From positions 24,143-88,142 of the forward strand of contig CAYQYP010000061.1 of the NCBI GenBank assembly GCA_964421755.1: a stretch of DNA of 64,000 bases. Reading direction: 5' to 3'. This stretch comes from an uncultured Acidobacteriota bacterium. Its GTDB lineage: Bacteria > Acidobacteriota > UBA6911 > RPQK01. Shown one piece after another: positions 44,728 to 62,700 of the stretch. Under the pieces are notes generated by a model. That model saw only the letters and a program-made list of their open reading frames with translations, did no database searches and was not told the origin of the DNA. The position numbers were made by a program, and so were the translations under genes. Each line of letters begins with the position of its first letter. The first letter of the stretch is position 1.

Positions 44728-46350
44728 ATGGCACAGCAGACCAAAATGGATCCTGAAACGCTCATGATGGTCCTCGACACCTTGGGCCGTCTGGAGAAGG
44801 ATCGCCTTCCTTTGGATACCAAGCTCGATCTCGACTACAGGGCTCTTTTCCCGAAAGAACTGATTCGCTTTATGGTCGGCCCGGATGTCGGGCTGCACCT
44901 CATTTTCGTGCCCGAAGAGTTCGGCGGGCTCGGCGCCGGGGCAACCGAAATAGCCGTGCTGTCGGAAAAAATGGCGAAAATTGACCTCGCGGTCGCGACC
45001 GCCTTTCTGGCGATCTGCCTCGGGATGGACCCGATCCTGGTCGGTTCAACGCCCGAGCAGAAGGAAAAGTACGTTACCCGCATCGCCGAGGAAGGGTTGA
45101 TCGTGGCTTATTGCGTCACTGAGCCCGAAGCTGGCTCGAACGTCCAGTCACTCAAGACTCGCGCGGATCGAGTCCTGGATTCAGAGGGCAAGCTGATCGG
45201 ATACAAGATCAACGGCCAGAAACAGTTTGTCACGAACGGCGGTGTTGCGGATCTGTACACGGTGCTTGCCGATACACCCGACGGACCGTCTTTCTTCATT
45301 GCGGAAGCAGGGACGCCCGGTCTTATACCCGGCCGTCATGAGGACAAGCACGGCATTCGTGCCTCCGATACAAGCCCGGTTACTCTCGAGGACATGTTCG
45401 TCCCGGTCGAAAACCTGGTAGGCGGCGTGGAAGGCCAGGGGCTCAAACAGGCCAACCAGGTCTTCGGCTACACGCGGCTGATGGTTGCGGCATTCGGGCT
45501 CGGCGCCGGGGTGGCCTCCATGGAGCGGGCTATCGCGTACGGCAAGGAGCGCATACAGTTTGGCACCCCGCTGGTTGCCAAACAGGCTTACACCCACAAG
45601 CTGCTCGTTCCACATATCGTGCAGCTCGAGGCCGCCCGTGCCTACATCGAGAAGGTTGCTGCCAGGCTGGATTCGGGGGAGGAAGACCTCCAGGTCGAAG
45701 GCGCGATTGCCAAGTACTTCGCCACCGAGGCGGGCGATTGGGCTGCCAATGATGGCATCCAGGCTTTTGGCGGCTATGGCTACATGCGCGAGTATGAAGT
45801 CGAGAAAATCAAGCGTGACGTGAAGATTACGACCATATACGAAGGCACGAGCGAGATCCTTCAGAACGTCATCGGCATGTTCCGCCTGCGCGAGACGGTG
45901 AGGAGCAAGGGCGGTTACTACACTTCAATGGCGGACGCTGTCGAGCAGTTGCCGGCCGAGACGGGGGGGCCGTGGGTCGGGCGCGCACTACGCGCGGTGG
46001 CCGAGGTTGTGCACGTGGCGCGTGACCTTAAGCTAACCAAGTCGCAGCATGTCATGTTCCTGCTGGCCGATATGATGACCTGGGCCGAAGTGGCGGGGGC
46101 GATGTGTCAAAAGGCGGCCAGGACCGACCTTGGTGGCAAATGGTCGCGCGATTTCATGCTGGCCGTTTCACGACTTTTTGCCCGGGAGACGGTCGAGTTA
46201 GCCCATGCTAACGCGCAGAAGATTTTGCGGGGTGGCGAGGCGACCGCCGATGGGGCAGCCGATCCGATCATTGCCAGGCTGCCCGTGGCTGCCTGCCAGG
46301 CAGGCCTGTTGCGTGATATGGACTTCATTGCCGCAGAAATGACGAAGTAG
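44728..46350 (+). CDS. Acyl-CoA dehydrogenase family protein with a C-terminal extension.
   Basis: ACAD N-terminal, middle (CVTEPEAGSN) and C-terminal (QAFGGYGYMREYEVEKIKRDVKITTIYEGTSEI) motifs. Confidence 0.8.
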   Translation: MAQQTKMDPETLMMVLDTLGRLEKDRLPLDTKLDLDYRALFPKELIRFMVGPDVGLHLIFVPEEFGGLGAGATEIAVLSEKMAKIDLAVATAFLAICLGMDPILVGSTPEQKEKYVTRIAEEGLIVAYCVTEPEAGSNVQSLKTRADRVLDSEGKLIGYKINGQKQFVTNGGVADLYTVLADTPDGPSFFIAEAGTPGLIPGRHEDKHGIRASDTSPVTLEDMFVPVENLVGGVEGQGLKQANQVFGYTRLMVAAFGLGAGVASMERAIAYGKERIQFGTPLVAKQAYTHKLLVPHIVQLEAARAYIEKVAARLDSGEEDLQVEGAIAKYFATEAGDWAANDGIQAFGGYGYMREYEVEKIKRDVKITTIYEGTSEILQNVIGMFRLRETVRSKGGYYTSMADAVEQLPAETGGPWVGRALRAVAEVVHVARDLKLTKSQHVMFLLADMMTWAEVAGAMCQKAARTDLGGKWSRDFMLAVSRLFARETVELAHANAQKILRGGEATADGAADPIIARLPVAACQAGLLRDMDFIAAEMTK

Positions 46351-46422
46351 GCGTAGGCGCGAAAGGTAGCAAGAGACTCGGACGTACGCGGACCAAAACG
46401 GACTTACACGGACAGCCTCTGA

Positions 46423-47787
46423 TCAGGGCTCGTCCGTGCTCGTCTGTGCCCTTCCGTGTTCGTCTTTGGCTGTCCCGCTCAGTTTTGCCAATCTCTCCAG
46501 CGCCGCTTCCACCTGCTCGAGTCTTTCAAAGAACCGACGTCGAAACCGATCGCCCTTGCGGACGATGCGCGTTGGATAGGTCCGGCCGAGCGCCTTCAAG
46601 AAGGCTTCATCGAGTGATCCGAGCGAGGGGATCAACTTGTCAGCCAACTGTTGAGCGTTCTTCCTCATCATCAGGAGCTCGGCGTACCCCCGCTGGAACA
46701 ACGACTGAAGGTGGATCGATTTCACTCCAGCGACCGCCTTCTCCAGATTTCCACCCGACCAGATTTCCAGGCCCAGATTGATGCCGGCGACTGCTTTCTT
46801 GATCCCCCGCCTTACTGCGTTGGGCGAACTGGGTGAAATTCGGTCCGCGGTCAGGAGCTTGTTGCAGACGAAAAAGAGCTCCTCGAGCAGTTCGCCGATG
46901 TCACCGGCCTGGCTCGCTCTCGCGAGGACCTGGATCAGGAGGAGCGGAGTCCGTGGAGCTTTAGTTCCGGGCGCCGGCAATTCGGAAAGCGCTTCAGTTT
47001 CTTCAATGCGCTTCCTGGGCAGGCGTTCCCCCGGATATATGGGAGTATAGATTCCGATGGCGTCGAAGTAGTCCTGAAAGCCCATTTCTTCGACCCGCTC
47101 GGTGCGACTGCGGTAGGCTGTCTCCATAATCTCCAGCCGGGTGCGGCTCATTGCCGACTCGAGCGTAACCGCAGTCCATTCGGAATCCAGGGCGTACAGT
47201 CGCAAGATGACGGCTCGCAGCAGTCTCGCCACTTCCGGGTTCTCGGGCAGGACGAGCAGATACCGGTTGTCCGGCGTGTGAAACTGTTCGCCTTCCTTCG
47301 GCTCGCTTTCCAGGTCGTCATAGACCTTGCGGTGAATCGTAATCTGCCGTCGAAACAGGAGCTCCCAGAGATCACGGTCGGCGGCGGCGATCAGCTTCCG
47401 GGCGACTGCGTCCTCAGCAGACAGCAGGTGACGTTGGAGGGAGAGGAACCGCTCGGTACTGGCCGTTGCCCGCTCCCAGATATCGAGGTCGATAACCGCT
47501 TGCCACTGCTCGCGGGTCAGGTGAGGCGCGAGCACCGCTATTTCATCCTCGTCCAGTTCCTTGAGGCCGAAAAAAATTTGAACAGCGGGCAACTTGCGAA
47601 TCCGGCCGCGGGTCTCGGAACTGGCCAGCAAGTCACGTAGATCGATTGGCGAATAACAGGCTCGGTAGATTGCGTCCTCTGGTTTTCGCACCAGGTCGTA
47701 CGATCGCGGCTCTGGATCCTTTCCCTCGGGTGCCATAGCTCGATTATAGGACCAATGAGACGGATAGCCCCTATCAGGGAGCCCCAA
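46423..47787 (-). CDS. Hypothetical alpha-helical protein (about 440-454 aa), last gene of the kamA-led operon.
   Basis: The TTG start abuts the upstream GNAT stop; the alternative ATG is at 47736. No recognised domain. Confidence 0.5.
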   Translation of the reverse strand: MGLPDRGYPSHWSYNRAMAPEGKDPEPRSYDLVRKPEDAIYRACYSPIDLRDLLASSETRGRIRKLPAVQIFFGLKELDEDEIAVLAPHLTREQWQAVIDLDIWERATASTERFLSLQRHLLSAEDAVARKLIAAADRDLWELLFRRQITIHRKVYDDLESEPKEGEQFHTPDNRYLLVLPENPEVARLLRAVILRLYALDSEWTAVTLESAMSRTRLEIMETAYRSRTERVEEMGFQDYFDAIGIYTPIYPGERLPRKRIEETEALSELPAPGTKAPRTPLLLIQVLARASQAGDIGELLEELFFVCNKLLTADRISPSSPNAVRRGIKKAVAGINLGLEIWSGGNLEKAVAGVKSIHLQSLFQRGYAELLMMRKNAQQLADKLIPSLGSLDEAFLKALGRTYPTRIVRKGDRFRRRFFERLEQVEAALERLAKLSGTAKDEHGRAQTSTDEP

Positions 47788-48327
47788 TCAGTCCAGGCGC
47801 AGTTCCATGAGCACCGGGGAGGGCATCAACTGGGGGTAATCCGCAAAAAGCGCGACCGGACGCAGGGTCGTGAAGTGATGCTTAACGAAGAGCGGCTGGG
47901 AGTGTGCATTCGCGATCAGGTGAATCCTCGATGCCGCCAGCCGCTTGGCGGCAGCCAGTTCGCGGTGCACCAGCGAATTCGCTATGCCAAGCTGCCTGAA
48001 GACCGGATCCACCGTCAAACCGAACACAAAGAAATACGGGGCGCGCGGGACGTGCCTAGGCGGAAAAGCTTCGCTGAGGTGCGAAGGATCCAGAGGGTCA
48101 AGGTCTGTGAGGACCGCACAACAGAAGCCGAGGATGTCCGGTCCTGCGGCCGCGACGCAGAAGCCTTGGGGAAAAACGCTGAACCGCCGGCGTATCTCGT
48201 CGGCGGATGCGGCGAGCTCGCGCCAGACGCGCGCTTCCAAGTGCGCCACCTGACCGAGATCTTCGAGGTGGCAGGTGCGAATCTCGCAGGTGACTTTTGT
48301 TCTTAGTTGAATTCTCTCGGCATCCAT
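47788..48327 (-). CDS. GNAT-family N-acetyltransferase.
   Basis: Acetyl-CoA-binding motif region (R/Q-x-x-G-x-A/G: FRQLGIANSLV). Confidence 0.65.
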   Translation of the reverse strand: MDAERIQLRTKVTCEIRTCHLEDLGQVAHLEARVWRELAASADEIRRRFSVFPQGFCVAAAGPDILGFCCAVLTDLDPLDPSHLSEAFPPRHVPRAPYFFVFGLTVDPVFRQLGIANSLVHRELAAAKRLAASRIHLIANAHSQPLFVKHHFTTLRPVALFADYPQLMPSPVLMELRLD

Positions 48328-48384
48328 CTCAAAACCGACGTCAGCCAGCTTGCCGGGCCTTGGCCAAAATCGCAGGCGGGTCCG

Positions 48385-48882
48385 TTACGGAGTCGGTGAT
48401 AGCTCACGGCTGAAAATGACTTTCGAGTCGCCAGGGCGATAGAAATCCTTGAGTACTGCCTCCTCGCGGTATCCGGCGGAGAGGTAGAAGGCCCGCGTAG
48501 GATTGTAGAGCTCGCGCGAAGACGTTTCGATGTAGACCCGGCGTCCGCCGCGTTCGGCGATCATTCGTTCGCTCTCCCGCAGCAGGGCTTTCCCGATGCC
48601 CCTGCCCTGGAACTGCGGATTGACCACGATCCAGTACAAGTCGTAGCTGGCGAGCGTAGCGGGTATCGGGCCGTAACACGTGTAGCCGACGAGGCGGCCT
48701 TCAGTCTTGGCAAGAAGGAAGAAGTACCCCGATTCTTCGCCTCGTCTGGCACTCTCCTCGGCCAGTTCGTAGGCTATTGCCACCTCCTCGTCGTTGAAGA
48801 AGCCGGTGGCTGCAACCAGCGATCTGAGTTGAACGAGATCGGCCTGCGAGACGTGAGTCAGAAAGGTGAGTTCGATGGGCAT
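48385..48882 (-). CDS. GNAT-family N-acetyltransferase.
   Basis: Classical motif A QFQGRGIGKALL. Confidence 0.8.
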   Translation of the reverse strand: MPIELTFLTHVSQADLVQLRSLVAATGFFNDEEVAIAYELAEESARRGEESGYFFLLAKTEGRLVGYTCYGPIPATLASYDLYWIVVNPQFQGRGIGKALLRESERMIAERGGRRVYIETSSRELYNPTRAFYLSAGYREEAVLKDFYRPGDSKVIFSRELSPTP

Positions 48883-48897
48883 AGTCGATATTGGCAG

Positions 48898-49857
48898 CTA
48901 GAGAGCCTCGGCCACGATTCGCGCGATCACCGTCCCGTGATCGTACCCGGCTTCCCGGGCAGCGGCCATGAGACCACCGTCCGGCGAAATGCAGGGGTTG
49001 GTGTTTACCTCCAGGACCCACGGCTCGCCGTTCCGATCGACCCGAAAGTCCACCCGGGCGTAGCCGCGAAGGCCGAAGACGGTCCAACACTGGCTGGCGA
49101 CGAGAGCCAGTCGGTTCAGCACCGGTTCCATATCCGGCCCGAACTGAAAGGTTCTTACCGTGTTCTTGTACTCGAAACTCTGTTCGTCCCACTTTGCGCG
49201 GTAGTCGACGATGTGGTACTGCCCGTCAGGGAAATCGATGAACTGAATTTCGGCGGGAGGCAAAAGCTCCGGTTGCTTCTTGAACCCGAGCAGTGACAAG
49301 TTGAACTCCCGACCGTGAATGAAGAGCTCGGCGAACCTCTCATCGGGCCCGCCTTCCCGAATACGCTCCGCTGCGAGAGCGCTGTCTGCGACGACGTTGT
49401 CCTGCCCGATTCCAATGGATGCATGCTCCCAGACCGATTTCACTATCCACGGAGAGCCGTCGAGCTCGGTCACGGCCGAATCCGCGGAGAGCCAGAGAGG
49501 CGTGGGGATTCCAGCCTGTTGCATGATGCGCTTGGCGAGCGTTTTGCTCCCGGTCAGGAAGAACGCCTCTGCGGGACAGCCCGTGTACGGGATGCCCAAG
49601 GAGTCCAGAAGCCCCGGAGCGAAGTACGCGAGACGACCCTTTCCTTCGACCGATTCCACGAGATTGAATGCGAGGTCAGGTGCGAAGCCGCGCAGGCGGG
49701 CAATTACGTCAGGGAGCGACAGCGAAAACTCAATCCGCTCGACCGTGTGTCCCTGGCTGCGGAGGCACGACGATACAACCTCTGCCTCGACGAGCACATC
49801 CTGCTCGTCCGGAGGTGCTTCCGGCGGCACGACCCCGTGGAGAACCGCGATTCTCAA
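48898..49857 (-). CDS. ATP-grasp ligase of the D-alanine--D-alanine ligase family (Ddl-like).
   Basis: Ddl-like N-terminal MRIAVLHG… and an ATP-grasp C-terminal core (…GYARVDFRVDRNGEPWVLEVNTNPC…). It overlaps the upstream ATP-grasp gene by 4 bp. Confidence 0.7.
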   Translation of the reverse strand: MRIAVLHGVVPPEAPPDEQDVLVEAEVVSSCLRSQGHTVERIEFSLSLPDVIARLRGFAPDLAFNLVESVEGKGRLAYFAPGLLDSLGIPYTGCPAEAFFLTGSKTLAKRIMQQAGIPTPLWLSADSAVTELDGSPWIVKSVWEHASIGIGQDNVVADSALAAERIREGGPDERFAELFIHGREFNLSLLGFKKQPELLPPAEIQFIDFPDGQYHIVDYRAKWDEQSFEYKNTVRTFQFGPDMEPVLNRLALVASQCWTVFGLRGYARVDFRVDRNGEPWVLEVNTNPCISPDGGLMAAAREAGYDHGTVIARIVAEAL

Positions 49858-50834
49858 GCCTTGCGTATCCTTTCGCAGGCGGAATCGATGATCATACCGA
49901 GCAAGTCGTCGTATTCCACCCCGGCCAACCGCGCGAGAATCGGCAAGTCCGACCAGACCGGGTTAAGACCCGCAAGCGGATTCACCTCGATGAATTGAGG
50001 GACGCCTTCATCGTCGCATCGCAAATCAATGCGTCCGGCATCCCTGCAGTCGAGGCCTCTCCACGCCTTGACGGCCGTTTCCTTGGCCTGTTCCGCCGTT
50101 TCGTCATCGACCAGCCGGTACTTGACCCGGTCTTCGTAGTTTGCCTTGTTCTGGTAAGAGTAGGAGCCCTGCTCGGCCGTGTCGAGAAGGTGCACCTCCA
50201 TGATTCCGAGCGCGCGCGTGGCCTTCCCGGTGCCGACGAGCCCTACGGTGAACTCCCGGCCGGGCAGGAATTCTTCGATGAGCACCGGCTGACGGTAAAG
50301 ACTCAGCAACCGGGCAACCACCGCGCGCAGCTGGCGCAGGTCATCGATTTTGGAATCGGCGGAAATGCCCTTGCTCGTACCTTCGCCCACGGGTTTTGCG
50401 AACAAAGGGAAGCGGAAATCGAGTTCGTTGATTTCCTCGGTGTCGGAAACAACCGTGAAATCAGTGGTCGGAAGGCCGAGATCGCGGATGACATGCTTGG
50501 TCAGGCCCTTGTGAAGAGTCAGGCCGAGCACCACCGGATCGGAAAAGGTATAAGGAATCTGGTAGGCGTCGAGAAGGCAGGGAACCTGCGCTTCGCGTCC
50601 GAGACCGTGAAATCCTTCGGCGATGTTAAAGACGAGATCCCATCTCTCGTTGGCCAGGAGTCTCCGCGCCAACTCGTTCAGGTTGCCGATGTTGACCGTC
50701 TGATGTCCGAGTTTGCCGAGTGCGCACGCAATGGCGTCGACGGTCTCCCGGCTGTCCAGCTCGGCCGTCTCTTCTTTCCCATACCCTTTGCGCAGGTACT
50801 CATCCCGGAGGTCGTAGGTTATTCCGATTCTCAT
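49854..50834 (-). CDS. ATP-grasp ligase of the D-alanine--D-alanine ligase family (Ddl-like), paralog of the downstream gene.
   Basis: MRIGITYDL… N-terminus and ATP-grasp core (…GRIDLRCDDEGVPQFIEVNPLAGL…). Confidence 0.7.
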   Translation of the reverse strand: MRIGITYDLRDEYLRKGYGKEETAELDSRETVDAIACALGKLGHQTVNIGNLNELARRLLANERWDLVFNIAEGFHGLGREAQVPCLLDAYQIPYTFSDPVVLGLTLHKGLTKHVIRDLGLPTTDFTVVSDTEEINELDFRFPLFAKPVGEGTSKGISADSKIDDLRQLRAVVARLLSLYRQPVLIEEFLPGREFTVGLVGTGKATRALGIMEVHLLDTAEQGSYSYQNKANYEDRVKYRLVDDETAEQAKETAVKAWRGLDCRDAGRIDLRCDDEGVPQFIEVNPLAGLNPVWSDLPILARLAGVEYDDLLGMIIDSACERIRKA

Positions 50835-50953
50835 TTCAGTTCTCGCTTCGGATCTGTTTGACGGGAGGCGCGTACACGCCGCAGTCCGGAGTCCGGTGAA
50901 GTGTATCAAACGCGAAGAGCGAAAGAAATGGGGAGCCCGCGCTCCCCATTTTG

Positions 50954-52249
50954 CTAAGCCCTCAACTGGACTAGTTTCGGATCGGCCGACGCCGAATCGA
51001 CAGGCCGCGCCAACGGATCCGGGTATTTGAACTTTTTACCCTCGTAGTTGCGAAGGACGATGTCGTCACCCTCGCGGCCTACGTAATACTCGGGAAGAAG
51101 AGGAATCTTCCCGCCACCACCGGGGGCATCGATGACGTAGGTCGGAACCGCGTAACCGGTCGTGTAGCCCCGCAACCCCTGGATGATTTCCAGTCCCTTC
51201 TCCACTGGTGTGCGGAAATGCGACGAACCGGAGATCGGATCGCATTGGTAAAGGTAATAGGGGCGAACGCGGATCTTCAGCAGACCGTGCACCAACCGCC
51301 TCATCACCTCCACGTCATCATTGACGCCCGCCAGCAATACGGTCTGGCTTCCAAGCGGAATGCCAGCGTCAGATAGCCGCGAGCAGGCTTCCGCCACTTC
51401 CGGGGTCAGTTCGTCTGGATGAGTAAAGTGAATACTCATCCAAAGCGGATGATACTTGCGCAGCATGCGAGTGAGCGCGGGCGTCACTCGCTGCGGAAGG
51501 ACCGACGGAACCTTCGTCCCGATCCGCAGGAACTCAACGTGCGGAATCTGGCTCAGCCTGGACAACAGCCATTCCAGACGATTGTCTGCCAGCGTCAGGG
51601 GATCGCCGCCGGACAACAAAACGTCGCGGATTTCGGTATGCGCCGCGATGTATTCCAGCGCCCGGTCCCACTGCTTCGTGTTAAATCGATATTCCCCGCC
51701 GGGGTTACCCACCATGCGGGACCTCGTGCAGTACCGGCAGTACACCGAACAGAAACCCGTGACCAGGAACAGAACGCGGTCGGGGTAGCGGTGTACCAGA
51801 CCCGGAACCGGGGAGGCATGGTCTTCACCCAGGGGATCGTCCGCCTCTCCAGGCACCCGAAAATGCTCGGCGGTGACCATTACGACGGTCCGCCGAAGCG
51901 GCTGGGTCGGGTTGATCTCGTCCAGAAGGGAGGCGTAGTACGGCGTGATGCCCACCGGGAGCGGGCCGGAGTGGCTCTGCAAAGCCAGACGCTCGTCTTC
52001 AGAGACCTGCAGAAAGCGTTCCAGGGTACGGAGGTCCGTAATCCGGTTACGCAGCTGCCAGTGCCAATCGTTCCATTCGAAGTCAGTGACGGCTGGGAAA
52101 AAGCGCTCTCTGAAAAGACGGGCCCTTGGCCCAATGACGAGATTCCGGGCGTTCGAGGGGCGTTTCGCCGGTGCGGGGTTGACTAAAGGCAGGTCGACAG
52201 ACAACCTACCGGGAGGTTCGGCTGACTGGCTTGCGCAGTCATCGTTCAT
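50954..52249 (-). CDS. kamA: Lysine 2,3-aminomutase (KamA/AblA family radical SAM enzyme).
   Basis: CSVYCRYCTR radical-SAM cluster motif in KamA context. PLP-binding-lysine region and the KamA-typical N-terminal …WQLRNRI… motif. Confidence 0.85.
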   Translation of the reverse strand: MNDDCASQSAEPPGRLSVDLPLVNPAPAKRPSNARNLVIGPRARLFRERFFPAVTDFEWNDWHWQLRNRITDLRTLERFLQVSEDERLALQSHSGPLPVGITPYYASLLDEINPTQPLRRTVVMVTAEHFRVPGEADDPLGEDHASPVPGLVHRYPDRVLFLVTGFCSVYCRYCTRSRMVGNPGGEYRFNTKQWDRALEYIAAHTEIRDVLLSGGDPLTLADNRLEWLLSRLSQIPHVEFLRIGTKVPSVLPQRVTPALTRMLRKYHPLWMSIHFTHPDELTPEVAEACSRLSDAGIPLGSQTVLLAGVNDDVEVMRRLVHGLLKIRVRPYYLYQCDPISGSSHFRTPVEKGLEIIQGLRGYTTGYAVPTYVIDAPGGGGKIPLLPEYYVGREGDDIVLRNYEGKKFKYPDPLARPVDSASADPKLVQLRA

Positions 52250-52586
52250 GGCCTGTATCTCCTTTCACCATGTCGGTCAGGCTGATGGCCTCACCATGAG
52301 GCGAAGGTTAACAAACCTCCCTGACAACCCGACCGAAACCTGCAGGATTTTAGCCCTGCTTCCTTTGATCCGTTGTGCGTGACCACACAAATCCCACGTT
52401 GAGACTCAGCGGCCTGACACTAAAAATAATTATACGGATTGCATCCGACAACGCGAGCAATCTCTGCAATTTCCGTAATTTTTTTGCGCTCTCAAATAGA
52501 AGCGCGACTAATAAGACGTGGACCTGCGCTGATAGTTGCGTGTTTTTTTGAGGGAGCCGCAGGGGGCCAACCGGGCAGACAAGCTG

Positions 52587-52600
52587 ACTTTAAGGACCTC
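52587..52600. terminator. Perfect 14-bp palindrome GGACCTCGAGGTCC downstream of the 52644..53123 gene. Possible terminator or operator in the long kamA upstream region.
   Basis: Read directly. Confidence 0.35.
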
Positions 52601-52643
52601 GAGGTCCGTTGGTGTCTGCGGTTCGCCATCCGACTGCGCGATC

Positions 52644-53123
52644 CTACTCGGTCGGGCAGATGACCGCTTGGGCTTCATCATCGGGAGGGCAGAAGGCCAC
52701 GCCGGCCGCTGGCCACCGCTCAGTCCGAGGGACAGTGGGCCAGCCTCCCAGTTGGTACTGGGCTTTCATCAGGCTGCGATCGAAGTTGTCCGCGGTGACC
52801 GGGACCGAAACCCGGCTGTGCCGTTTGTCGATGGCTCGTCCCAGGAAGTACCCACCGACCCCGCCTGCGGCGGCAAGCGCCAGTGCCAGCGTCCAGATCT
52901 TTCGCTCCGCGAAAGTGGCGTCGTCATACGCCGCGATGCCGGCAAAAACCCCCAAGGTATAGGCCCCACCGGCTCCGGCGGCCGTGCAGATGATCCGGTA
53001 CTTGGACGATTCTTTCGGTGGGGTGGGGTTCTGGGATGGGCCGCCGCCTTGTCCGAAGACCGAGCTCAGGGCAAACGACGCGATCACAAACGAAGCAATG
53101 AGGCGATTGTGTCGTGAAATCAT
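52644..53123 (-). CDS. Secreted glycine-zipper (SlyB/17-kDa-antigen-like) small membrane-associated protein.
   Basis: Signal peptide and GxxxG-rich segments (AAGAGGAYTLGVFAGIAA…AAAGGVGGYFLG). Confidence 0.55.
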   Translation of the reverse strand: MISRHNRLIASFVIASFALSSVFGQGGGPSQNPTPPKESSKYRIICTAAGAGGAYTLGVFAGIAAYDDATFAERKIWTLALALAAAGGVGGYFLGRAIDKRHSRVSVPVTADNFDRSLMKAQYQLGGWPTVPRTERWPAAGVAFCPPDDEAQAVICPTE

Positions 53124-53357
53124 AATGTCTCCTTGCGCTTGGTCGGATGCACGTTCTGTTCCTTACAGCACGACCTCGGCCAGTCGCCTTAAAGGCGCAC
53201 TCCTGCGTGGCTCCAGGTGCCTCCGGTGGAGCAGATCCTCGACAGCAAGTGCCAAAAAGATCGGCACCGGCTGACGCCAGAGAGTCTATTGTTCGGTCAC
53301 ACGCGTTAAGAGCGGATTGGCACTCGTCTTGCTCCTCAGCGATCAGGAGAAGAGTCC

Positions 53358-54905
53358 GTGATGCATCTGTTGGGGTTCTCGGGGAAGACGCGCTTGTGGG
53401 CAGCGATTTTAGTCTGCGCCTTCGTCTGCAATCAACCGGCGACAGCCGGAGGGCAATTGACCGAGGACGAGCGGAAGGAGCTTGCGGCGGCAGTCAAGGA
53501 GTACAAGAAGAGTCATGTCGGCCGGGACGACTGCAAGCTCATCCGATTATTCCCGAGCCTCCCGCCCGACGAGAAAGTGAAGCTCTGGCTCACCTTGATC
53601 AAGCGTCACCTTTTCGGAGACCAGGTGGTCCGCGACACGATGCTCATCTGGGGAGTGGATGCGGCGCCGGTTCTGACTGACATCGTTCGCCGTGGGAAGG
53701 GCATGGACCGGACGCTCGCGCTGATGTTGCTGTGCGACATGGACCGCTTTGTCCCCCATGATCAGTTTCCGTTTGAGGAGCTTCACGGTTCGGTGCGCGA
53801 CTGGACTCGAACCGCCTGGTCGGAGAAGCTTGAGCATGGCGGAGAAATCAACCGCTTCGCACCCATCGATGGGCGAAGGATTGGCGTGGAGGCTCGAAAC
53901 GCCGTTTACTGGGCTGCCGAGCAGACGGACGACACCGAGTTGCGCTTCCACGCCCGTGAGCACACCGGGCTCTTTCTCGAGGACCTCAGAAAGTGGCCGA
54001 CTGAACATGTCGTGAAGCAATGGGTTCGTCTGGCGGCCAAGGCTCGCCAGTTGGCAGCCCTGGGCTTCTACACCGATGTAAATATCTGGATTCACCAGTG
54101 TCAGATGATCCTGATGGAACGACCGAAAGAGTCGATCCCGGCCGTGACCGCCATTCTACGGTCGTCTCGGGACCCATTCGTGAGGGACAGGGCAGAGGAC
54201 CTTCTGCTTCGGATGGACAGGAGCGTCGTTCGGCTGCGGCGGACTGAGGACGGACGGAAGGCTATCGAAGCGCTTCGGGCGCGATACCGGCGCTCGGATC
54301 TTGCGGTATTTGAACGGCCGCAAGCACCTTTTGGTCTTGCGTCCATTCACGAGCGGATACTGCTGGACAAGGACCCGGAGGCGCTGATGGTGAGCGACTT
54401 CACGCAGCTGATGGCGATCGCCTTTGAACAGTATTATGGAGAGGTAACCCGCTCGACGCTCCCGCCGGAACACACGGCCAAGAGCGTCAACCCCGAGGTC
54501 CGCAGATTCGGCGCTTACCTGAGCTGGGTTGACCCGTGGTATCCCAGCTGGGAGTTCACCGACTGCCGCGGCGGGCGGGACGCCGTCTTCCATCCTGCCT
54601 TCAAGGGCAAGATGGCCAGGTATTACCAAGTGTGGAAGGAATTCAAGGCACGTGGTTTCGTTCTCCCGGAGGCGGCTTTGCCCCCTGCCCCAGACCCTGA
54701 GTACGCCGAGGCTGTTCTTGCTGCCCGCCAACGGGTTGACGAAACAGTCGCAGTGCGAGCGCGTGGTTCCAACCGGGTCCTTTCACCTGAGGCCGCCGGT
54801 TGGCCCGCATGGTTACCGACGGGGCCAATCGGGCCGAATGGCTCGTCGCCATGGCGGAGCGGAATCGACGGGAAGCTCGGAAAAGTACAAGGACGGATCA
54901 ATTAA
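53358..54905 (+). CDS. Secreted hypothetical protein (515 aa).
   Basis: Signal peptide. No recognised domain. Confidence 0.5.
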   Translation: MMHLLGFSGKTRLWAAILVCAFVCNQPATAGGQLTEDERKELAAAVKEYKKSHVGRDDCKLIRLFPSLPPDEKVKLWLTLIKRHLFGDQVVRDTMLIWGVDAAPVLTDIVRRGKGMDRTLALMLLCDMDRFVPHDQFPFEELHGSVRDWTRTAWSEKLEHGGEINRFAPIDGRRIGVEARNAVYWAAEQTDDTELRFHAREHTGLFLEDLRKWPTEHVVKQWVRLAAKARQLAALGFYTDVNIWIHQCQMILMERPKESIPAVTAILRSSRDPFVRDRAEDLLLRMDRSVVRLRRTEDGRKAIEALRARYRRSDLAVFERPQAPFGLASIHERILLDKDPEALMVSDFTQLMAIAFEQYYGEVTRSTLPPEHTAKSVNPEVRRFGAYLSWVDPWYPSWEFTDCRGGRDAVFHPAFKGKMARYYQVWKEFKARGFVLPEAALPPAPDPEYAEAVLAARQRVDETVAVRARGSNRVLSPEAAGWPAWLPTGPIGPNGSSPWRSGIDGKLGKVQGRIN

Positions 54906-54921
54906 GAAGGCCCTTAAAGCC

Positions 54922-55866
54922 TCAAGGTTGGGTGCCGAAGTCTCGTCGCGCGAAGAGACGGACTTTCCCCCAACGTTCACGAGAGACTCGGACCTGGACA
55001 GTCCGCTTCTTCGTTCCGCTTACCGAACTCGACCGGCGGAAGAAGACTCGATATTGCCCGCGCAGAAAGTTCGAGAGAACGTGAAAGTTCTTCTCGATCC
55101 TGGCAAACGAGACCACCGAGAACGGGAAAACGGTTCCTCCCGATCTCCTTGGAAGTTCCGCCACCACCCGGGGAGGAAACCGGAATCGAGTGTCTGGCCC
55201 GACCGCCGGCAGGTCTGATGTAGCAAATGCAATATGGACCGTTACCAGGCTCCGGTCTATTTCTTTCCCGATTGCGGATAGAGACAACTCACTGCTGTTG
55301 TCTTCTCCATCGGTCACGACCACGATAATCCGCCTCCCTGGGGATGCCCCGAGTGGAATTAGTGCCTCACCCAAGGCCTCGTAAAGAGCAGTTGGCCTCC
55401 CTGGACCTCGACTCGCCCGGGGGACCGGGGGCAGCTGCCGAGATTCGATGGCAACGGGATAGACTGATTGATCGAAGGCCAGGACCGAGCAGCGCGACTC
55501 TTCAGGTAACAATCCGGACAACCGTCGGATCTCGCTCATGACGCCCGTTTCCACGTCCTTGGTCGCCCACCAATCGTCCATGGAACTACTCCGGTCGAGG
55601 AGGAAAACGACATCGGCGGGAACCATGCGTGAGACCTTCACCACGTTGCAGCGAATTCCGTTCTCCGTGATCGTGAAGTCGCTGCCATCGAGGTTGGCAA
55701 GGATTTCGCCATCCGTCATCGAGCCTTTCATAACCACCACGTCGACGAAGCCCTCACTCTCACCCGAGGCGAAAAGACCGTGGAACGAGATCGCAAAAAC
55801 CAGCAGACAGCACCTCAGGGATAGGTAAGCGAGCGACCGGGCAGGCATACGAACGATTATAAGCAC
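54922..55866 (-). CDS. VWA-domain protein, second acidobacterial-VWFA paralog.
   Basis: MIDAS-like DRSSSMD and VTDGEDN motifs. Signal/TM N-terminus. The C-terminal …VQVRVSRE… region parallels the 23568-24572 paralog. Confidence 0.7.
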   Translation of the reverse strand: MLIIVRMPARSLAYLSLRCCLLVFAISFHGLFASGESEGFVDVVVMKGSMTDGEILANLDGSDFTITENGIRCNVVKVSRMVPADVVFLLDRSSSMDDWWATKDVETGVMSEIRRLSGLLPEESRCSVLAFDQSVYPVAIESRQLPPVPRASRGPGRPTALYEALGEALIPLGASPGRRIIVVVTDGEDNSSELSLSAIGKEIDRSLVTVHIAFATSDLPAVGPDTRFRFPPRVVAELPRRSGGTVFPFSVVSFARIEKNFHVLSNFLRGQYRVFFRRSSSVSGTKKRTVQVRVSRERWGKVRLFARRDFGTQP

Positions 55867-55947
55867 AGGGGGCCGCCAAGCGGGGTTGATTTCTTCGGAA
55901 AACCGCAGCGCTTGGCGGCCCTTTTCGCCGCCCCACCGAGGAGGCCG

Positions 55948-56631
55948 CTAAGGTCGGCTTCCCGCGTCGTTGACCGACGCTCGTAGCGCCCGCAAATCCT
56001 GGCCCATATGGTTGAAGTGCGACACCAGGTTCCGGGCGAGAAGTGACCCCTCCTGGGCGCCGGCTGCCGCCCGCTGCAGGTGGCGCATTTGCTGGTTCTT
56101 GGATGTCTTTGTCGAGCTCATCAGGGCGGCTGCGAATTCCATTTCGGGATTCCCTGTCTTGTCGATCGCCTGCTGCACCAGGGCATAACCGTCAATTGAG
56201 GGCGCGGTCACCGGGCGTTTCAGGATCGGCAGCGCTTGTCTGTACGTCTCGACGAAGTATCCGAGGTCGAACTGGGCAAGGGCCGCGGGAGTGCCCTTGG
56301 CCTCCAGCATCCGCGTCTTCAGAGCGCCCATCACGGATATGGCTGCCTGTTGATCGCGAATGCCGTAGAGCGCCGAACGCCGGAGAGTTTCCATACGCGT
56401 GATTACGGGGGTTTCCGGCTGAAGCAATGCCAGGGTGTCTGCGGCGAGCTTGGCCGTGTCGTAATCAGGACGACTTTCGTGCCAGCCGGCTCCACCCCAG
56501 GGGAGCGAGCGCGAATTCTCGGTCTCAAACGGGAAGCAGACCAGCGGTGGGCCCGCCCAAAGCGCTGTTCCGACTCCGGTGATCGTAATCGAAAGAAAGG
56601 CCACGCAAGCGACCAGGTGTTTCGTTTTCAT
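55948..56631 (-). CDS. Secreted hypothetical protein (about 227 aa).
   Basis: Signal peptide MKTKHLVACVAFLSITITGVGTALWA. It is divergent from the ECF sigma gene. Confidence 0.5.
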   Translation of the reverse strand: MKTKHLVACVAFLSITITGVGTALWAGPPLVCFPFETENSRSLPWGGAGWHESRPDYDTAKLAADTLALLQPETPVITRMETLRRSALYGIRDQQAAISVMGALKTRMLEAKGTPAALAQFDLGYFVETYRQALPILKRPVTAPSIDGYALVQQAIDKTGNPEMEFAAALMSSTKTSKNQQMRHLQRAAAGAQEGSLLARNLVSHFNHMGQDLRALRASVNDAGSRP

Positions 56632-56862
56632 GATTCGTTCTCCTTTGTATGTCAGGTGTCGCCGGCCGGCACGCCTGGGCTGCATTTCGTGGTGCAGCTA
56701 GTTGTTTTTCTGCCCGGATTAGACGCCGGCGGAACCCTCCGGGTTGGAACTGCATATTTATTAGTAAGCTCACACTCTGTTTAAACGGCGGACCGCCCGT
56801 CGGTGTCTAACGAAGTTAAGAACCAGAGGCGGACGGGCGGCTTGGGTTTTGCGGCCGGAGAA

Positions 56863-57435
56863 ATGATGTCTATAAACCCCGCATTGATGGGGAACCAGGG
56901 AGCATCGGACCCGGAAGAGGTTCGGGAGTGGGTCGCGTGCGCTCAGGCGGGCGATACGGCAGCCTACGAGCGGTTGTACCGGATCTATGTCCGCCGGATC
57001 TACTCGCTCTGTTACCGAATGCTGGCAGAATCGGACTGGGCAGAAGAAGTTACCCAGGAAATCTTCATCAAAGCATGGACGGCTCTCAGGAGCTTCCGGA
57101 ATGAAAGCAGCTTTTTCTCCTGGCTCTACCGGTTGGCGGTCAACCGGGTGCTGGGAAGCATCCGGGAAAACCGACGACGCGTCGCCCGTGTGTTCACTGC
57201 CGAAGACCGAGTCCTGGAGCAGCACCCGGGGAGACGGACATCTACCGAAGAAAATTTGGACTTGGAGCTGGCGATAGCGGGGCTTCCCGAGCGCGCCCGC
57301 CTGGTCTTTGTGCTGTACGAGATTGAGGGATATCGTCACGACGAAATTGCCGCATTGCTTGGCGTTGCGGAAGGGACCTGCAAGGCGCAGTTGCACCGCG
57401 CCCGGCTTTTGCTCAGAAAGGCACTAGGAAGATGA
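56863..57435 (+). CDS. ECF RNA polymerase sigma factor.
   Basis: Region 2 (YRMLAESDWAEEVTQEIFIKAW) and region 4 (HDEIAALLGVAEGTCKAQLHRARLLLRK). The alternative GTG start at 56803 cannot be excluded. Confidence 0.75.
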   Translation: MMSINPALMGNQGASDPEEVREWVACAQAGDTAAYERLYRIYVRRIYSLCYRMLAESDWAEEVTQEIFIKAWTALRSFRNESSFFSWLYRLAVNRVLGSIRENRRRVARVFTAEDRVLEQHPGRRTSTEENLDLELAIAGLPERARLVFVLYEIEGYRHDEIAALLGVAEGTCKAQLHRARLLLRKALGR

Positions 57436-58565
57436 TTTGTAACGAGGCACAAAAGAAAGTCGACGAGCTCGTCGATGGAAGCCTTGTTGGGCGTGAACGC
57501 GACGAGTTCGAGAGGCATCTGCTCGGCTGTCCGGAATGCCGATCCTATCTCGATTGGGTTCGGTGGCTCTCGGTCGCGGCCCGGGCATTGCCGGAAATGG
57601 CCCCCGCCCGCGATTTCTGGCAGGACATTTCCGGTGAGCTCGCAGAACCTGGCGCGTCTGTGGTCTGTCTGGCTGACCACAAGGCGATCGGCTCTCGCCG
57701 GCGGTCCCCTCTTCCAGATATTCATCTGTACCGGCGGGCATTGATCCCCCGACTCGGGAAGGCCGCCGCCTTGGTCTGCATTCTCCTCGCGTTCGGTTTC
57801 GCCCTGATGCTTGTTTCGGACGAGCCAGTCGCGGAGACCGGGTGGAGCGTGAAGTGGGAGTCGCAGGGAGGCGCCCAGGAGCGCGGCGATCTCGCCGCCC
57901 AACTCAGCGTCGGCCAGATGATGGAGACGGACAGCCGATCCACGGCTCATATCGAGATTGCCAGCATCGGGCAAGTGGAGGTGCGGCCCAACAGCCGGGT
58001 ACGCCTGGTTGAAAGCCACGAAAACGAACAGCGCATGGCATTGGAGAAAGGCGTGATCAGGGCCCTGATATTGGCGCCGCCGCGCCTGTTCTTCGTGGAA
58101 ACGCCATCCGCGCTGGCTGTCGACCTGGGTTGCGCTTACGAGCTGAGCGTGGATGAAAATGGCAACGGCAAGCTTGAAGTAACGTCCGGTTGGGTCGCTC
58201 TGGAGTACGATGGCATCGAATCCCTGGTGCCCGCAGGAGCGGTTTGCACGTCCCGGCCGGGGCGAGGTCCGGGCACGCCGCATTTTCCGGACGCCGCGCC
58301 TGGCTTCAAGGCAGCTCTGGCAGAGATCGACGCCGGTTCTGCAGGAACCGCGGCGATTGAGGCCGCGCTGGCCGGCGCCCGGTTGCGTGACACCCTGTCT
58401 GTTTGGCACCTGTTCGCGCGAGTGGAACCGCGGGTGCGCCCGGCGGTTTACGACCGGTTGTCGGCTCTGGTGCCGGCCCCCGAGGGAGTCACCAGGGAAG
58501 GCGTGATGCAGCTCGACCCGACGATGCTTTCGCTTTGGAAAGGCGAGCTGCAGGCGCACTGGTAA
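57432..58565 (+). CDS. Anti-sigma factor with an N-terminal zinc-finger, a TM helix and a periplasmic FecR-like domain.
   Basis: HLLGCPEC motif. It overlaps the sigma gene by 4 bp. TM AAALVCILLAFGFALMLV. Confidence 0.7.
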   Translation: MICNEAQKKVDELVDGSLVGRERDEFERHLLGCPECRSYLDWVRWLSVAARALPEMAPARDFWQDISGELAEPGASVVCLADHKAIGSRRRSPLPDIHLYRRALIPRLGKAAALVCILLAFGFALMLVSDEPVAETGWSVKWESQGGAQERGDLAAQLSVGQMMETDSRSTAHIEIASIGQVEVRPNSRVRLVESHENEQRMALEKGVIRALILAPPRLFFVETPSALAVDLGCAYELSVDENGNGKLEVTSGWVALEYDGIESLVPAGAVCTSRPGRGPGTPHFPDAAPGFKAALAEIDAGSAGTAAIEAALAGARLRDTLSVWHLFARVEPRVRPAVYDRLSALVPAPEGVTREGVMQLDPTMLSLWKGELQAHW

Positions 58566-59418: not shown

Positions 59419-60819
59419 TCAGTCCCAGTTGCGGATGTCGACGAAGTGACCCTCGATCGCCGCTGCAGCCGCCATGGCTGGGCTGACCAGGTGGGTCCTG
59501 CCTCCGCGGCCCTGCCGGCCCTCGAAGTTGCGGTTGGAAGTGGAGGCGCAGCGCTCTCCCGGGGCCAGGATATCGGGGTTCATCCCCAGGCACATGCTGC
59601 ATCCGGATTCCCGCCAGTCAAAACCTGCCTGCACGAAGATTTCGTCAAGTCCCTCGGCCTCGGCCCGTCGCTTGACCTGCTGCGACCCGGGGACAACCAT
59701 CGCCTTGACTTTCGGGGATACCTTTCGGCCTCGGACGACCTCTGCCGCCACCCGAAGATCCTCGATGCGCCCATTCGTGCAGGATCCGATGAATACCCGG
59801 TCCACCGGGATTTCGGTAATGGGTTGTCCCGGATGGAGGTCCATGTACTCGAGCGCCCTGCGCGCGGCTCTTCGCGCGTTGTCCTCCTCGAGGCGGTCGG
59901 GATCGGGCACAGCACCGGTGACGTCGGCCACCATGCCGGGGCTGGTTCCCCAGCTGACCTGTGGAGCAAGGTTTTCGACGTTCAAGGTCAATTCGCGATC
60001 GAACGACGCGTGCGGATCGGTACGCAGTGCCTTCCACGATTCAACGGCGTCCGCAAACTCTCGTCCCTTTGGGATGAAGGGTCTGCCTTCCAAATATCCG
60101 AACGTGATGCCGTCGGGAGCGATCATCCCAGCCCTGGCCCCGGCCTCGATCGACATATTGCAGACGGTCATGCGCTCTTCCATCGTGAGCGCGGTGATGG
60201 CTTGCCCCGCGTATTCGAGCACGTAACCGGTGGCCCCGTCGGTTCCGATGTTCCGAATCAGGTACAGGATGAGATCCTTGGCTGACACGCGCTGCGGGAG
60301 ACGGCCCTCGAAGACGACCCGGAACGTCCGCGGGTCGGACTGCAGCAGGCATTGGGTTGCGAGCACGTGCTCAACCTCGCTCGTCCCGATACCGAACGCG
60401 AGCGCCCCAAAGGCGCCGTGGGTGGCGGTGTGGCTGTCGCCGCAAACGATCGTCGTACCGGGCCGCGTGATGCCGAGCTCCGGGCCGATAACGTGCACGA
60501 TCCCCTGGTTCGGGCTGTCCAGCCCATAGAGCGGGACACCGAATTCCTTGCAGTTTCGCTCCAGGGTCTCGATCTGAGTGCGCGAGATCGGATCCACGAT
60601 TGGTAGTGATCGGTCGGTCGTGGGGACATTGTGGTCCATCGTCGCGTACGTCCGATCGGGTCTTCGGACCTTCCGGCCGGTCAGCCTCAGTCCTTCGAAG
60701 GCCTGCGGAGACGTCACCTCATGGACCAAATGACAGTCGATGTAGAGGATGGCCGGTTGACCGGCCTCGCGGTGCACAACATGACTGTCCCATATCTTTT
60801 GGAACAGGGTCTTCGGCAT
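59419..60819 (-). CDS. leuC: 3-isopropylmalate dehydratase large subunit (aconitase family).
   Basis: LeuC N-terminus [15 protein letters not shown]… and the aconitase Cys-ligand region ([11 protein letters not shown]). Start at the ATG at 60819. Confidence 0.85.
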
Positions 60820-60947
60820 GGTGTGAGCTCTTGAAAAGAGGTCATCCACGAAGTACACGAAGGAACACGAACAAGACCGTCTTATTCGTGCTACGCCGCG
60901 CTGTGTCCTTAGTGGATGACCTCTCTCTCTTCCTTTCCCGAGATCGA

Positions 60948-62498
60948 TCAGCTCTCGGCCACTTTATCGGCTTTCTTGGCTTCGCTTCGCTGCTTCTCCG
61001 TATACGCTTTGTTGACCGCGTTGATGTAGGCCCGGGCACTGGCATCGATGATGTCGACGCTGGCGGCCTTCCCGGTGTAATTCTTGTTCTCGAATTCCAC
61101 GTGAACGAAAACCTCACCGAGAGCGTCCTTGCCACGGGTGACGGAGTTGACTGTGTAATCGAGTAGTCTGCCGGGCATGCCCGTGACCTTGTCGATCGCC
61201 TTGTAACAGGCGTGGATCGGACCATCCCCAACCGCTGATTCTACGCAGCTATCGGTGCCTTTCTCGATCTTCACGGCCGCGCTGGAAATCGCCTGGCTGC
61301 CGCCGGACGAAAGTACGAACTTCAGCCTGTATACGTCCGGGACAATCTTCATCCCATCCTGGATAATCGCGACCAGGTCTTCCTCGTATACTTCCTTCTT
61401 CTGGTCGGCCAGTTTCGTAAAGAAGAAATAGGCACGTTCGAGCTCTTCGGAGCTCAATTCGTACCCCAGTTCTTCGAACTTGTTGCGCAATGCATGCCGT
61501 CCGCTGTGCTTGCCCATCACAAGCGTGGTGCTGCTCAGCCCCACCGATTGGGGCGTCATGATTTCATAGGTAAGCGAGTTTTTCAGGATTCCGTCCTGGT
61601 GGATGCCGGCCTCGTGTGCGAACGCGTTGCGGCCAACAATAGCCTTGTTCGGCTGGACGAAACTACCGGTCAGGTTGGTCAACAGCTTGCTCGAGCGCGA
61701 GATCTCCTCGGTGTTGATCTCGGAGTTGAAGGGGAGCACGTTTTTGCGGGTGCGGATCGCCATGGCGATCTCCTCAAGCGATGCGTTCCCGGCGCGTTCC
61801 CCGATGCCGTTGATCGTGCATTCCACCTGGCGACAGCCGTTCAACAGCCCGGCCAGCGAGTTTGCGACGGCAAGACCCAAATCGTTGTGGCAATGGCAGC
61901 TGAAGATCGCCTTGTCGCGGTTCGGGATCTTCGCGATCACGTCGCGAACGAACGGCCCAAACTCCATCGGCACGGCGTACCCGACCGTATCCGGGATGTT
62001 TATGATGGTCGCACCTTGTTCGATAGCGGCCGTCAGAACCTCCGCGAGGTAATCGATGTCGCTGCGGGTGGCGTCTTCTGCCGAAAACTCCACTTCCTCG
62101 CAGAGATTGCGGGCTGTCTTCACCGCTTCTATCGTCTGCGCCAGAACCTCGGCGCGGGTCTTTCTAAGCTTGTACTGCAGGTGGATGTCCGATGTCGCGA
62201 TGAACGTGTGAATGCGAGGCTTGCGCGCCTGTTTGACCGCCTCCCAGGCACGTTCGATATCCAGTCGGTTGGCCCTTGCCAGGGCGGCAATCGTCGGCTT
62301 TCGGACTTGCACGCTAACCGCCTGAACCGCCTCGAAGTCACCTTCGGAAGCAATCGGAAACCCGGCTTCAATGACATCGACGTTGAGGCGTTCCAGCTGG
62401 CGGGCCATTTTTAGCTTTTCTTCCAGGTACATCGAACAGCCAGGGGATTGCTCGCCATCTCTCAACGTGGTGTCAAAAAAATACACTCGCTCTGCCAT
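60948..62498 (-). CDS. leuA: 2-isopropylmalate synthase.
   Basis: [21 protein letters not shown]-terminus (HMGL-like) and a C-terminal LeuA dimerisation/regulatory domain. Start at the ATG preceded by AAGGAGGAAG. Confidence 0.85.
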
Positions 62499-62570
62499 GC
62501 TTCCTCCTTGGGTGCAAAAAAAGCGGTGTCTAAAACTATCAAAATCACGCCCAGCTGGCAAGTTTGGGGC

Positions 62571-62612
62571 CGAATGCGGAGTGCGGAATGGCGGAGTGCG
62601 GAGTGCGGAATG
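62571..62612. repeat. TGCGGAGTGCGGAATGG-type tandem repeat upstream of leuA and downstream of the MFS gene, related to the 14095-14405 repeat family.
   Basis: GAATGCGGAGTGCGGAATGGCGGAGTGCGGAGTGCGGAATGG. Confidence 0.65.
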
Positions 62613-62700
62613 GGGAACCAAAGCGGGCATCGCGGTTGTCCCTGGTGTCCTTGAGCTCCTTGGGGTTCTTGGGGTCCGACGCTCGACTCCCCGAAAAGAC

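Follow-up and report, generated by a model that had tools for sequence, protein, structure and literature searches.

The stretch analyzed here, hereafter the window, comprises 64,000 nucleotides of contig CAYQYP010000061.1 from an uncultured Acidobacteriota bacterium, and our subject is a minus-strand gene cluster within it that combines kamA, encoding an enzyme of the lysine 2,3-aminomutase type, with two genes for ATP-grasp ligases (AGA and AGB) and a gene for a GNAT acetyltransferase (GNAT1). The list of open reading frames (ORFs), together with Pfam and NCBIfam domain assignments, places six co-directional minus-strand ORFs within positions 46423–52249, the remaining two encoding a second acetyltransferase, GNAT2, and a protein of the DUF6178 family (Table 1). 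This agrees with the ORFs and domains named in an initial interpretation of the DNA letters and translations (the sequence-only reading), which had also correctly recognized two paralogous Ddl-like ligases: AGA and AGB are 30% identical, and their genes overlap by 4 bp. The GC content across the region is unremarkable and not atypical.

Table 1. Features of the kamA region of the window, with the evidence for each
Feature	Positions	Strand	Evidence or remarks
Upstream intergenic region	52250..52643	-	TATAAT, structured leader, AAGGAG
kamA, 431 amino acids	50954..52249	-	Radical_SAM and LAM_C domains; radical SAM/pyridoxal phosphate (PLP) enzyme, lysine 2,3-aminomutase type
Terminator-like GC-rich hairpin and U-tract in the kamA-AGA spacer	50921..50952	-	Sequence, fold, relatives
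AGA (ATP-grasp A), 326 amino acids from the likely ATG	49854..50834	-	Longest ORF from 50909; Dala_Dala_lig_C
AGB (ATP-grasp B), 319 amino acids	48898..49857	-	Dala_Dala_lig_C, 62 bits
GNAT1, 165 amino acids	48385..48882	-	Acetyltransf_1, 55 bits
GNAT2, 179 amino acids	47788..48327	-	Acetyltransf_1, weak, 31 bits
DUF6178 protein, 437 amino acids from the likely ATG at 47736	46423..47736	-	Longest ORF (454 amino acids) from 47787; PF19676

Two of the starts given in Table 1 differ from those of the longest ORFs. All AGA orthologues begin with MKIGITYDL or MRIGITYDL, and because this N-terminus is common to all of them and the window AGA has MRIGITYDL at 50834, translation probably begins at that position and not at 50909; the spacer between kamA and AGA therefore measures 119 nt. 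Similarly, since the homologues of the DUF6178 protein are 411–436 amino acids long, and since GNAT2 and DUF6178 are separated by 115 nt in L089, the closest relative (84% identical), the DUF6178 protein probably starts at M18, instead of adjoining the GNAT2 stop codon as had been proposed for the 454-residue ORF. A lookup of the exact sequence of that ORF gave no record, which we attribute to the different real start.

We searched 83 further loci, 80 from genomes and three from metagenomes (L005–L087), with the six window proteins. kamA, AGA, AGB and GNAT1 are contiguous and on the same strand in 40 of these, and a single gene is inserted before GNAT1 in another 16, so that the order kamA-AGA-AGB-GNAT1 is found in at least 56 of the 83 loci, under more than 10 phylum-level labels, and AGB and GNAT1 are conserved together in no fewer than 56. 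The remaining loci consist of three with kamA-AGA only, two with kamA-AGA-AGB in which GNAT1 was not found downstream, one (L059) in which GNAT1 is located before AGA, four in which kamA is absent from the flank, and 17 that are cut by a contig end. Overall, kamA lies directly upstream of the ligases in 75 of the 83 loci, and AGA is followed by AGB in about 70. Unbiased clustering of the neighboring ORFs of these loci revealed no further strongly recurrent partner and no transporter; nor was a conserved carrier protein or precursor peptide seen among the recurrent neighbors. Weakly recurrent were PAS/sigma-54 activators (14 loci), Fpg (nine loci) and PhoU/Pho4 (seven loci). Judged by this synteny, kamA, AGA, AGB and GNAT1 make up the functional unit, a conserved cassette of four genes.

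The loci carry labels of Thermodesulfobacteriota (Syntrophales, Smithella, Desulfobacterales and the cultured Desulfosarcina variabilis), Ignavibacteriales, Bacteroidota, Planctomycetota, Spirochaetota and Thermoanaerobaculia, as well as Marinimicrobia, WOR-3, KSB1, Riflemargulisbacteria, and Gamma- and Alphaproteobacteria; these phylum labels are those of metagenome-assembled genomes (MAGs), a few of which may reflect binning errors. A scan with AGA of a genome collection in which each species is represented once gave at least 594 genome loci, and the cassette hosts amount to hundreds of species, mostly anaerobic bacteria. At the protein level, more than 8000 clusters match AGA, the best being 60–68% identical and coming from many phyla, and 787 AGA-matching clusters (clustered at 50% identity) were obtained at E <= 1e-30. 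A tblastn search of plasmids with AGA gave no match. Our literature search found no description of the cassette or of this gene combination, although many subscription papers were beyond reach and a prior description is possible; two papers that were retrieved mention only ordinary ablAB or kamA (PMC3543383, PMC12316311).

Natural fusions are known for each adjacent pair of cassette proteins. A KamA::AGA fusion (P0364) is 65% and 57% identical to the respective window proteins, AGA::AGB tandems have many representatives of 640–730 amino acids in both orders, and AGB::GNAT1 fusions are represented by P0246 and P0255.

KamA itself is a radical-SAM enzyme with a CxxxCxxC motif, as the sequence-only reading had stated, and has the LAM_C domain. 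It scores 367.5 bits against the KamA-family model TIGR00238 (cut-off 199.2), which places it in that family, and it matches the crystallized lysine 2,3-aminomutase (PDB 2A5H) with 449 bits and 51% identity. Residues C125, C129, C132, R134, D293, D330 and K337 (2A5H numbering) are shared by the window KamA and all of the 71 cassette orthologues. We take the three cysteines to be the cluster ligands, K337 to be the PLP lysine, R134 to contact the carboxylate of lysine, and D293 and D330 to contact its epsilon-ammonium group. D293 and D330 are replaced in glutamate 2,3-aminomutase. Because these two aspartates are kept, lysine is the expected substrate of KamA. Among the equivalog models, the best match is to AblA (TIGR03820; 481.1, below the cut-off of 525.4); the protein also remains below the cut-off for EpmB (TIGR03821; 260, cut-off 369) and below those of the glutamate and arginine equivalog models.

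The source databases label the AGA/AGB family as 'D-alanine--D-alanine ligase'. However, in the Ddl model NF002378 AGA scores 145 and AGB 110, both far below the cut-off of 243. We mapped the residues of Escherichia coli DdlB onto 80 AGA and 69 AGB sequences and found the ATP-grasp catalytic and Mg/ATP-binding residues to be retained, with K97, K144, E180, E187, K215, R255, D257, E270 and N272 invariant in both sets; because of this invariance, AGA and AGB should both be active. The set of residues that binds D-Ala (S150, Y216, S281, L282) is not preserved in either ligase. S150 is replaced by threonine in AGA and by alanine in AGB, Y216 by glutamate, alanine or lysine in AGA and by an invariant tryptophan in AGB, and L282 by an invariant aspartate in AGA and by glycine in AGB; AGB has, furthermore, aspartate in place of H280, and alanine, serine or glycine at position 281. 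Each family thus has an invariant aspartate at the nucleophile site, at DdlB position 282 in AGA and 280 in AGB, and this extra acidic residue would fit a cationic amine substrate. Comparison with other ligase families gave figures (without unit) of 25–29 for Ddl/VanA, 21–23 for LysX/ArgX/RimK, 16–21 for L-amino-acid ligases, 18.5 for glutathione synthetase and 16.1 for PylC. The mur, fts and other cell-wall families are absent among the recurrent neighbors of the ligases in the 83 loci; the neighbor is kamA, and the ligases are not located beside mur or ddl genes. We therefore take AGA and AGB not to be D-Ala-D-Ala ligases, to which they are only distantly related. As a separate observation, one of the AGA relatives, P0453 (980 amino acids, from a representative library), has N-terminal leucine-rich repeats fused to the C-terminal half of an AGA-like ATP-grasp protein.

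The acetyl-CoA motif region is present in GNAT1. AblB-type NCBIfam models gave no match for either GNAT1 or GNAT2 at E <= 0.01. In 21 loci, about a quarter of the total and not including the window, the cassette is accompanied by a gene for a deacetylase in which a GNAT domain at the N-terminus is combined with a Hist_deacetyl domain. The nearest solved relatives of this protein are acetylpolyamine amidohydrolases (264 bits), and all 21 copies contain the RPPGHH and EGGY motifs, both of which have been reported for bacterial polyamine deacetylases (PMC11532494). No similarity could be detected between GNAT2 and the GNAT domain of this fusion protein. In Desulfosarcina variabilis (L041:10022-12277) and in L025, L049, L056, L057, L071 and L079, GNAT, deacetylase and GNAT1 form a single ORF of approximately 750 amino acids; an acetyltransferase and a deacetylase in one polypeptide is an unusual architecture. 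Such a deacetylase would make the acetylation reversible, as in polyamine homeostasis.

Taking the gene content, conservation, fusions and residues together, we consider it probable, although by no means certain, that the four-gene cassette builds a small cytoplasmic amide containing beta-lysine. From these observations we infer the individual chemical steps, the nature of the second substrate and a role in physiology as follows. KamA would isomerize L-lysine to beta-lysine; AGA, a Ddl-fold enzyme that in other loci is coupled translationally or fused to KamA, would form a first amide bond via an acyl-phosphate, beta-lysine being one of the two partners; its paralogue AGB would add a second residue; and GNAT1 would acetylate a remaining free amine, an acetyl group that, in some lineages, the optional ApaH-type enzyme would take off again. 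The product would be N-acetylated, di- or tripeptide-like and probably cationic, with beta-lysyl-X or a short oligo-beta-lysine as candidates. A small cytoplasmic molecule is proposed because the cassette comes without a conserved transporter, carrier protein or precursor peptide, and a cationic one because the deacetylase is of the polyamine type and the ligase pockets are acidic. A role as a compatible solute or as a polyamine-like stress metabolite of anaerobes is plausible. The sequence-only reading had likewise envisaged an uncharacterized path from KamA-made beta-lysine through Ddl-like ligation to GNAT acetylation, and the residues, gene order and fusions are consistent with such a path. 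A more far-reaching version, which we advance tentatively and would not yet count on, is that the cassette makes a hitherto unrecognized metabolite, very widespread among anaerobes of more than 10 phyla: a beta-lysine oligomer or beta-lysyl peptide, made by ATP-grasp enzymes, that is reversibly N-acetylated and serves as polyamine surrogate or compatible solute, and that this is the first ADP-forming route to beta-lysine amides.

Several points weigh against this proposal. The best NCBIfam match of GNAT1, which lies below the cut-off, is the protein N-terminal acetyltransferase RimI. ATP-grasp enzymes can take proteins as substrates too, and a macromolecular acceptor is conceivable. Four loci (L021, L036, L043, L080) have AGA without kamA within 8 kb, and two of them (L043, L080) also carry AGB and GNAT1; a substitute upstream enzyme was looked for in the loci without kamA and none was present, and either kamA is located elsewhere in these genomes or the ligases accept another substrate. 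The MAGs with the cassette span freshwater, peat, groundwater, digester and marine habitats, and this mixture disfavors a purely osmotic role. In the lineage of the window, moreover, a terminator-like hairpin lies between kamA and the ligases. Finally, the fusions are metagenome or assembly gene calls, and individual cases may be frameshift artefacts, although there are many such proteins and each adjacent pair is represented.

Of the other readings, modification of a macromolecule is one that we regard as unlikely. Beta-lysine or a beta-lysyl peptide would be ligated onto the side chain or terminus of a protein and then acetylated, for which beta-lysylation of elongation factor P (EF-P), poly-glutamylation by RimK and the LysX/LysW system offer precedents. 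We give little credence to a secreted bioactive beta-lysine peptide akin to the streptothricin side chain or poly-beta-lysine, with GNAT1 conferring self-protection and the deacetylase activating the product, even though beta-lysine oligomers are known as antibiotics (PMC10522769), a cycle of acetylation and deacetylation fits a pro-drug, and GNAT1 has faint matches to streptothricin and aminoglycoside acetyltransferases (E = 0.004 to 1e-4, far below the cut-offs). The cassette has no conserved exporter and no plasmid copy, its GC content is not atypical, and a protein identity of 55–70% across more than 10 phyla, together with an occurrence in hundreds of species, resembles a housekeeping or stress function more than a specialized metabolite. 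It is hardly credible that the locus is a standard AblA/AblB osmolyte pair, or a lysine fermentation locus, beside two cell-wall Ddl paralogues. AblA is indeed the best equivalog of KamA, and the databases do name the ligases accordingly; however, neither GNAT is of the AblB type, KamA falls short of the AblA cut-off, the ligases fall short of the Ddl cut-off and have their D-Ala-binding residues replaced, their neighbor is kamA and never a mur or fts gene, fusions link them to KamA and GNAT1, and kamDE, kdd, kce and kal are not present. A low-molecular-weight thiol is a possible product, although nothing points to a cysteine-specific step. Three further candidates were set aside: a cluster for a peptide made by the ribosome and modified after translation (RiPP), as there is no conserved precursor ORF; an anti-phage defence system, for which PADLOC gave no match to the six proteins; and a recent horizontal acquisition, in view of the unremarkable GC content.

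The full model of the sequence-only reading, in which GNAT2 and DUF6178 belong with the other four genes to a single operon and pathway, we consider distinctly improbable. Both in the window and in L089, all six genes run in the same direction and are separated by short gaps, and GNAT2 and DUF6178 adjoin the cassette in four acidobacterial loci. However, neither GNAT2 nor DUF6178 had a match in any of the 83 loci, and both are missing from every non-acidobacterial cassette. L088 has the order leuACD-kamA-AGA-AGB-GNAT1-GNAT2-DUF6178-acyl-CoA dehydrogenase, in which the GNAT2 homologue (58% identical) is on the opposite strand; in L091 the second GNAT, whose identity as a GNAT is Pfam-assigned only, is also on the opposite strand; and L090 has the pair without the cassette, a 51%-identical GNAT2 homologue being divergent from DUF6178 beside a resistance-nodulation-division (RND) pump. 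The DUF6178 protein, whose 454-residue ORF matches PF19676 with 229.8 bits (gathering threshold 25.5), belongs to a family nearly confined to Acidobacteriota. It adjoins endonuclease V repeatedly (L001, L003, L004) or, in a sub-clade, a divergent GNAT of the GNAT2 family, and homologues of 38–48% identity adjoin endonuclease V, TerB, SSF-family transporter or glycosyltransferase genes, without kamA. In L003 and L004 the order is leuA-leuC-leuD-endoV-DUF6178, and in the window leuA and leuC lie upstream of the cassette (59419-62630). Because of this leu-DUF6178 synteny in L003, L004, the window and L088, the cassette looks as if it had been inserted into an older leu...DUF6178 backbone. A structural model of DUF6178 is helical, shows no enzyme-like fold and only faintly resembles the MgtE N-domain, and our literature search found no paper mentioning the family. 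GNAT2 is thus probably a lineage-specific neighbor paired with DUF6178, and DUF6178 itself is part of the syntenic backbone and no member of the cassette. The two form a separate module that is adjacent by synteny and not needed for the pathway.

Between leuC/leuD and the cassette (52644-58559), the window contains four ORFs without Pfam matches, at 52644-53123 (minus strand), 53358-54905 (plus strand), 55948-56685 (minus strand) and 57336-58559 (minus strand), and a protein with a weak vWA domain at 54922-55866 (minus strand). The matching stretch of L089 contains an extracytoplasmic function (ECF) sigma/anti-sigma pair.

The TATAAT element, the hairpin and the strong ribosome-binding site that had been described for the 394 bp upstream of kamA were all found in the sequence. 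The -10-like TATAAT lies at 52429-52434. Within the kamA leader, the hairpin CCTCATGGTGAGG occupies 52289-52301, and the AAGGAG ribosome-binding site (52259-52264) precedes the kamA ATG by 9 nt. The leader of approximately 180–190 nt (52250-52440) folds more strongly than all 200 shuffled sequences (z = -4.66) and contains three to four hairpins. TATAAT and its flanks are kept in L089 and L088, while the leader is kept only in the near-identical L089; between the window and L089, one hairpin changes from GCAGGG...UCCUGC to GCAGGA...UUCUGC with pairing retained, a comparison of two sequences. An Rfam search of positions 46000-53200 (E <= 1) gave no match, and metagenomes scanned with DNA patterns for additional leader copies yielded none. 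These results lend no support to the metabolite-responsive regulation that the sequence-only reading had suggested.

The spacer between kamA and AGA also folds stably (-45.4 kcal/mol, z = -3.1). Its terminator-like hairpin is kept in L089 (~6712-6745), and L088 has a comparable hairpin and T-run at the same place (~9945-9990); a simple promoter/terminator scan, which performed at background level, did not list it. Because of this hairpin, the assertion that the genes are almost certainly one transcript is not safe. The hairpin may act in partial termination or as an mRNA-stabilizing element, and may set the ratio of kamA to ligase expression or permit regulated read-through. Outside this acidobacterial lineage, most phyla have kamA and AGA directly adjoining or overlapping each other. 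In other phyla, too, 15 of 70 loci have, no more than 450 nt upstream of kamA, a sigma-54-type -24/-12 motif of the form TGGCAC-N5-TTGC-like, where about one would be expected (background 0.013 per 460 nt): L014, L020, L031, L033-L035, L037, L039, L045, L049, L050, L053, L056, L064 and L075. The window has the TATAAT-type promoter instead. Enhancer-binding proteins with PAS or receiver domains are frequent near the cassette.

If the proposed pathway is correct, hundreds of mostly uncultured anaerobic species, including members of the Syntrophales, Desulfobacterales, Spirochaetota, Planctomycetota, Bacteroidota and Acidobacteriota, have in common a metabolite derived from beta-lysine that has yet to be described, as well as a new enzymatic route to beta-amino-acid amides. 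Two large families now annotated as 'D-alanine--D-alanine ligase' would acquire a function, and an ApaH-type deacetylase would be tied to a defined pathway. The corrected four-gene boundary shows which genes to clone. As the cultured Desulfosarcina variabilis (NZ_CP159846, region 2905589-2922572) has a five-component version, the hypothesis is directly testable.

Among known systems, the cassette resembles the AblA/AblB pair of methanogens and some bacteria, in which a lysine 2,3-aminomutase gene is likewise followed by a GNAT gene in one operon and a cytoplasmic acetylated derivative of beta-lysine is made. It differs in having two ATP-grasp ligases between mutase and GNAT, in a RimI-like GNAT1 of 165 amino acids without an AblB-type match, and in a KamA below the AblA cut-off, and it would thus amount to AblA/AblB-like logic extended by two ligation steps. 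In contrast to Ddl and VanA, the cassette ligases reach only about half of the NCBIfam cut-off, have S150, Y216 and L282 replaced, and have kamA, not mur or ftsQ, as their genomic partner. Beta-lysylation of EF-P by EpmB and EpmA differs in that KamA scores below the EpmB cut-off and the cassette contains no gene resembling an aminoacyl-tRNA synthetase. Lysine fermentation and the Bacillus yodT-kamA operon differ as well, since no kamDE, kdd, kce, kal, aminotransferase or CoA-transferase gene is found in the window neighborhood or among the recurrent neighbors.

Two small-molecule pathways share part of the proposed chemistry. In the PylB/PylC pathway of pyrrolysine biosynthesis, a radical-SAM lysine mutase acts first, and an ATP-grasp ligase then joins the rearranged amino acid to an amine; the order of mutase and ATP-grasp enzyme is that of the cassette, and we use it as a working analogy. 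The synthesis of N-acetylglutaminylglutamine amide (NAGGN) by Ngg, a fused GNAT/ATP-grasp protein, together with AsnO yields an N-acetylated dipeptide that is a compatible solute. GNAT and ATP-grasp chemistry is common to both, and GNAT/ATP-grasp fusions occur in the cassette family too, but NAGGN synthesis involves neither an aminomutase nor a beta-amino acid. SpeG-type GNATs and ApaH resemble the optional part of the cassette, whose deacetylase is closest to ApaH, contains RPPGHH and EGGY, and is paired with or fused to a GNAT; the cassette enzymes are, however, embedded in a biosynthetic unit with a beta-lysine-forming enzyme. The side chain of streptothricin and epsilon-poly-beta-lysine are made by adenylating enzymes of the non-ribosomal peptide synthetase type in actinomycetes (PMC10522769). 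There, too, a lysine 2,3-aminomutase gene adjoins that of a peptide-forming enzyme, and amides of beta-lysine are produced (PMC10522769); the cassette, by contrast, would rely on ATP-grasp ligases of the ADP-forming kind, and this in anaerobes of many phyla. An ATP-grasp route to beta-lysine peptides would be new.

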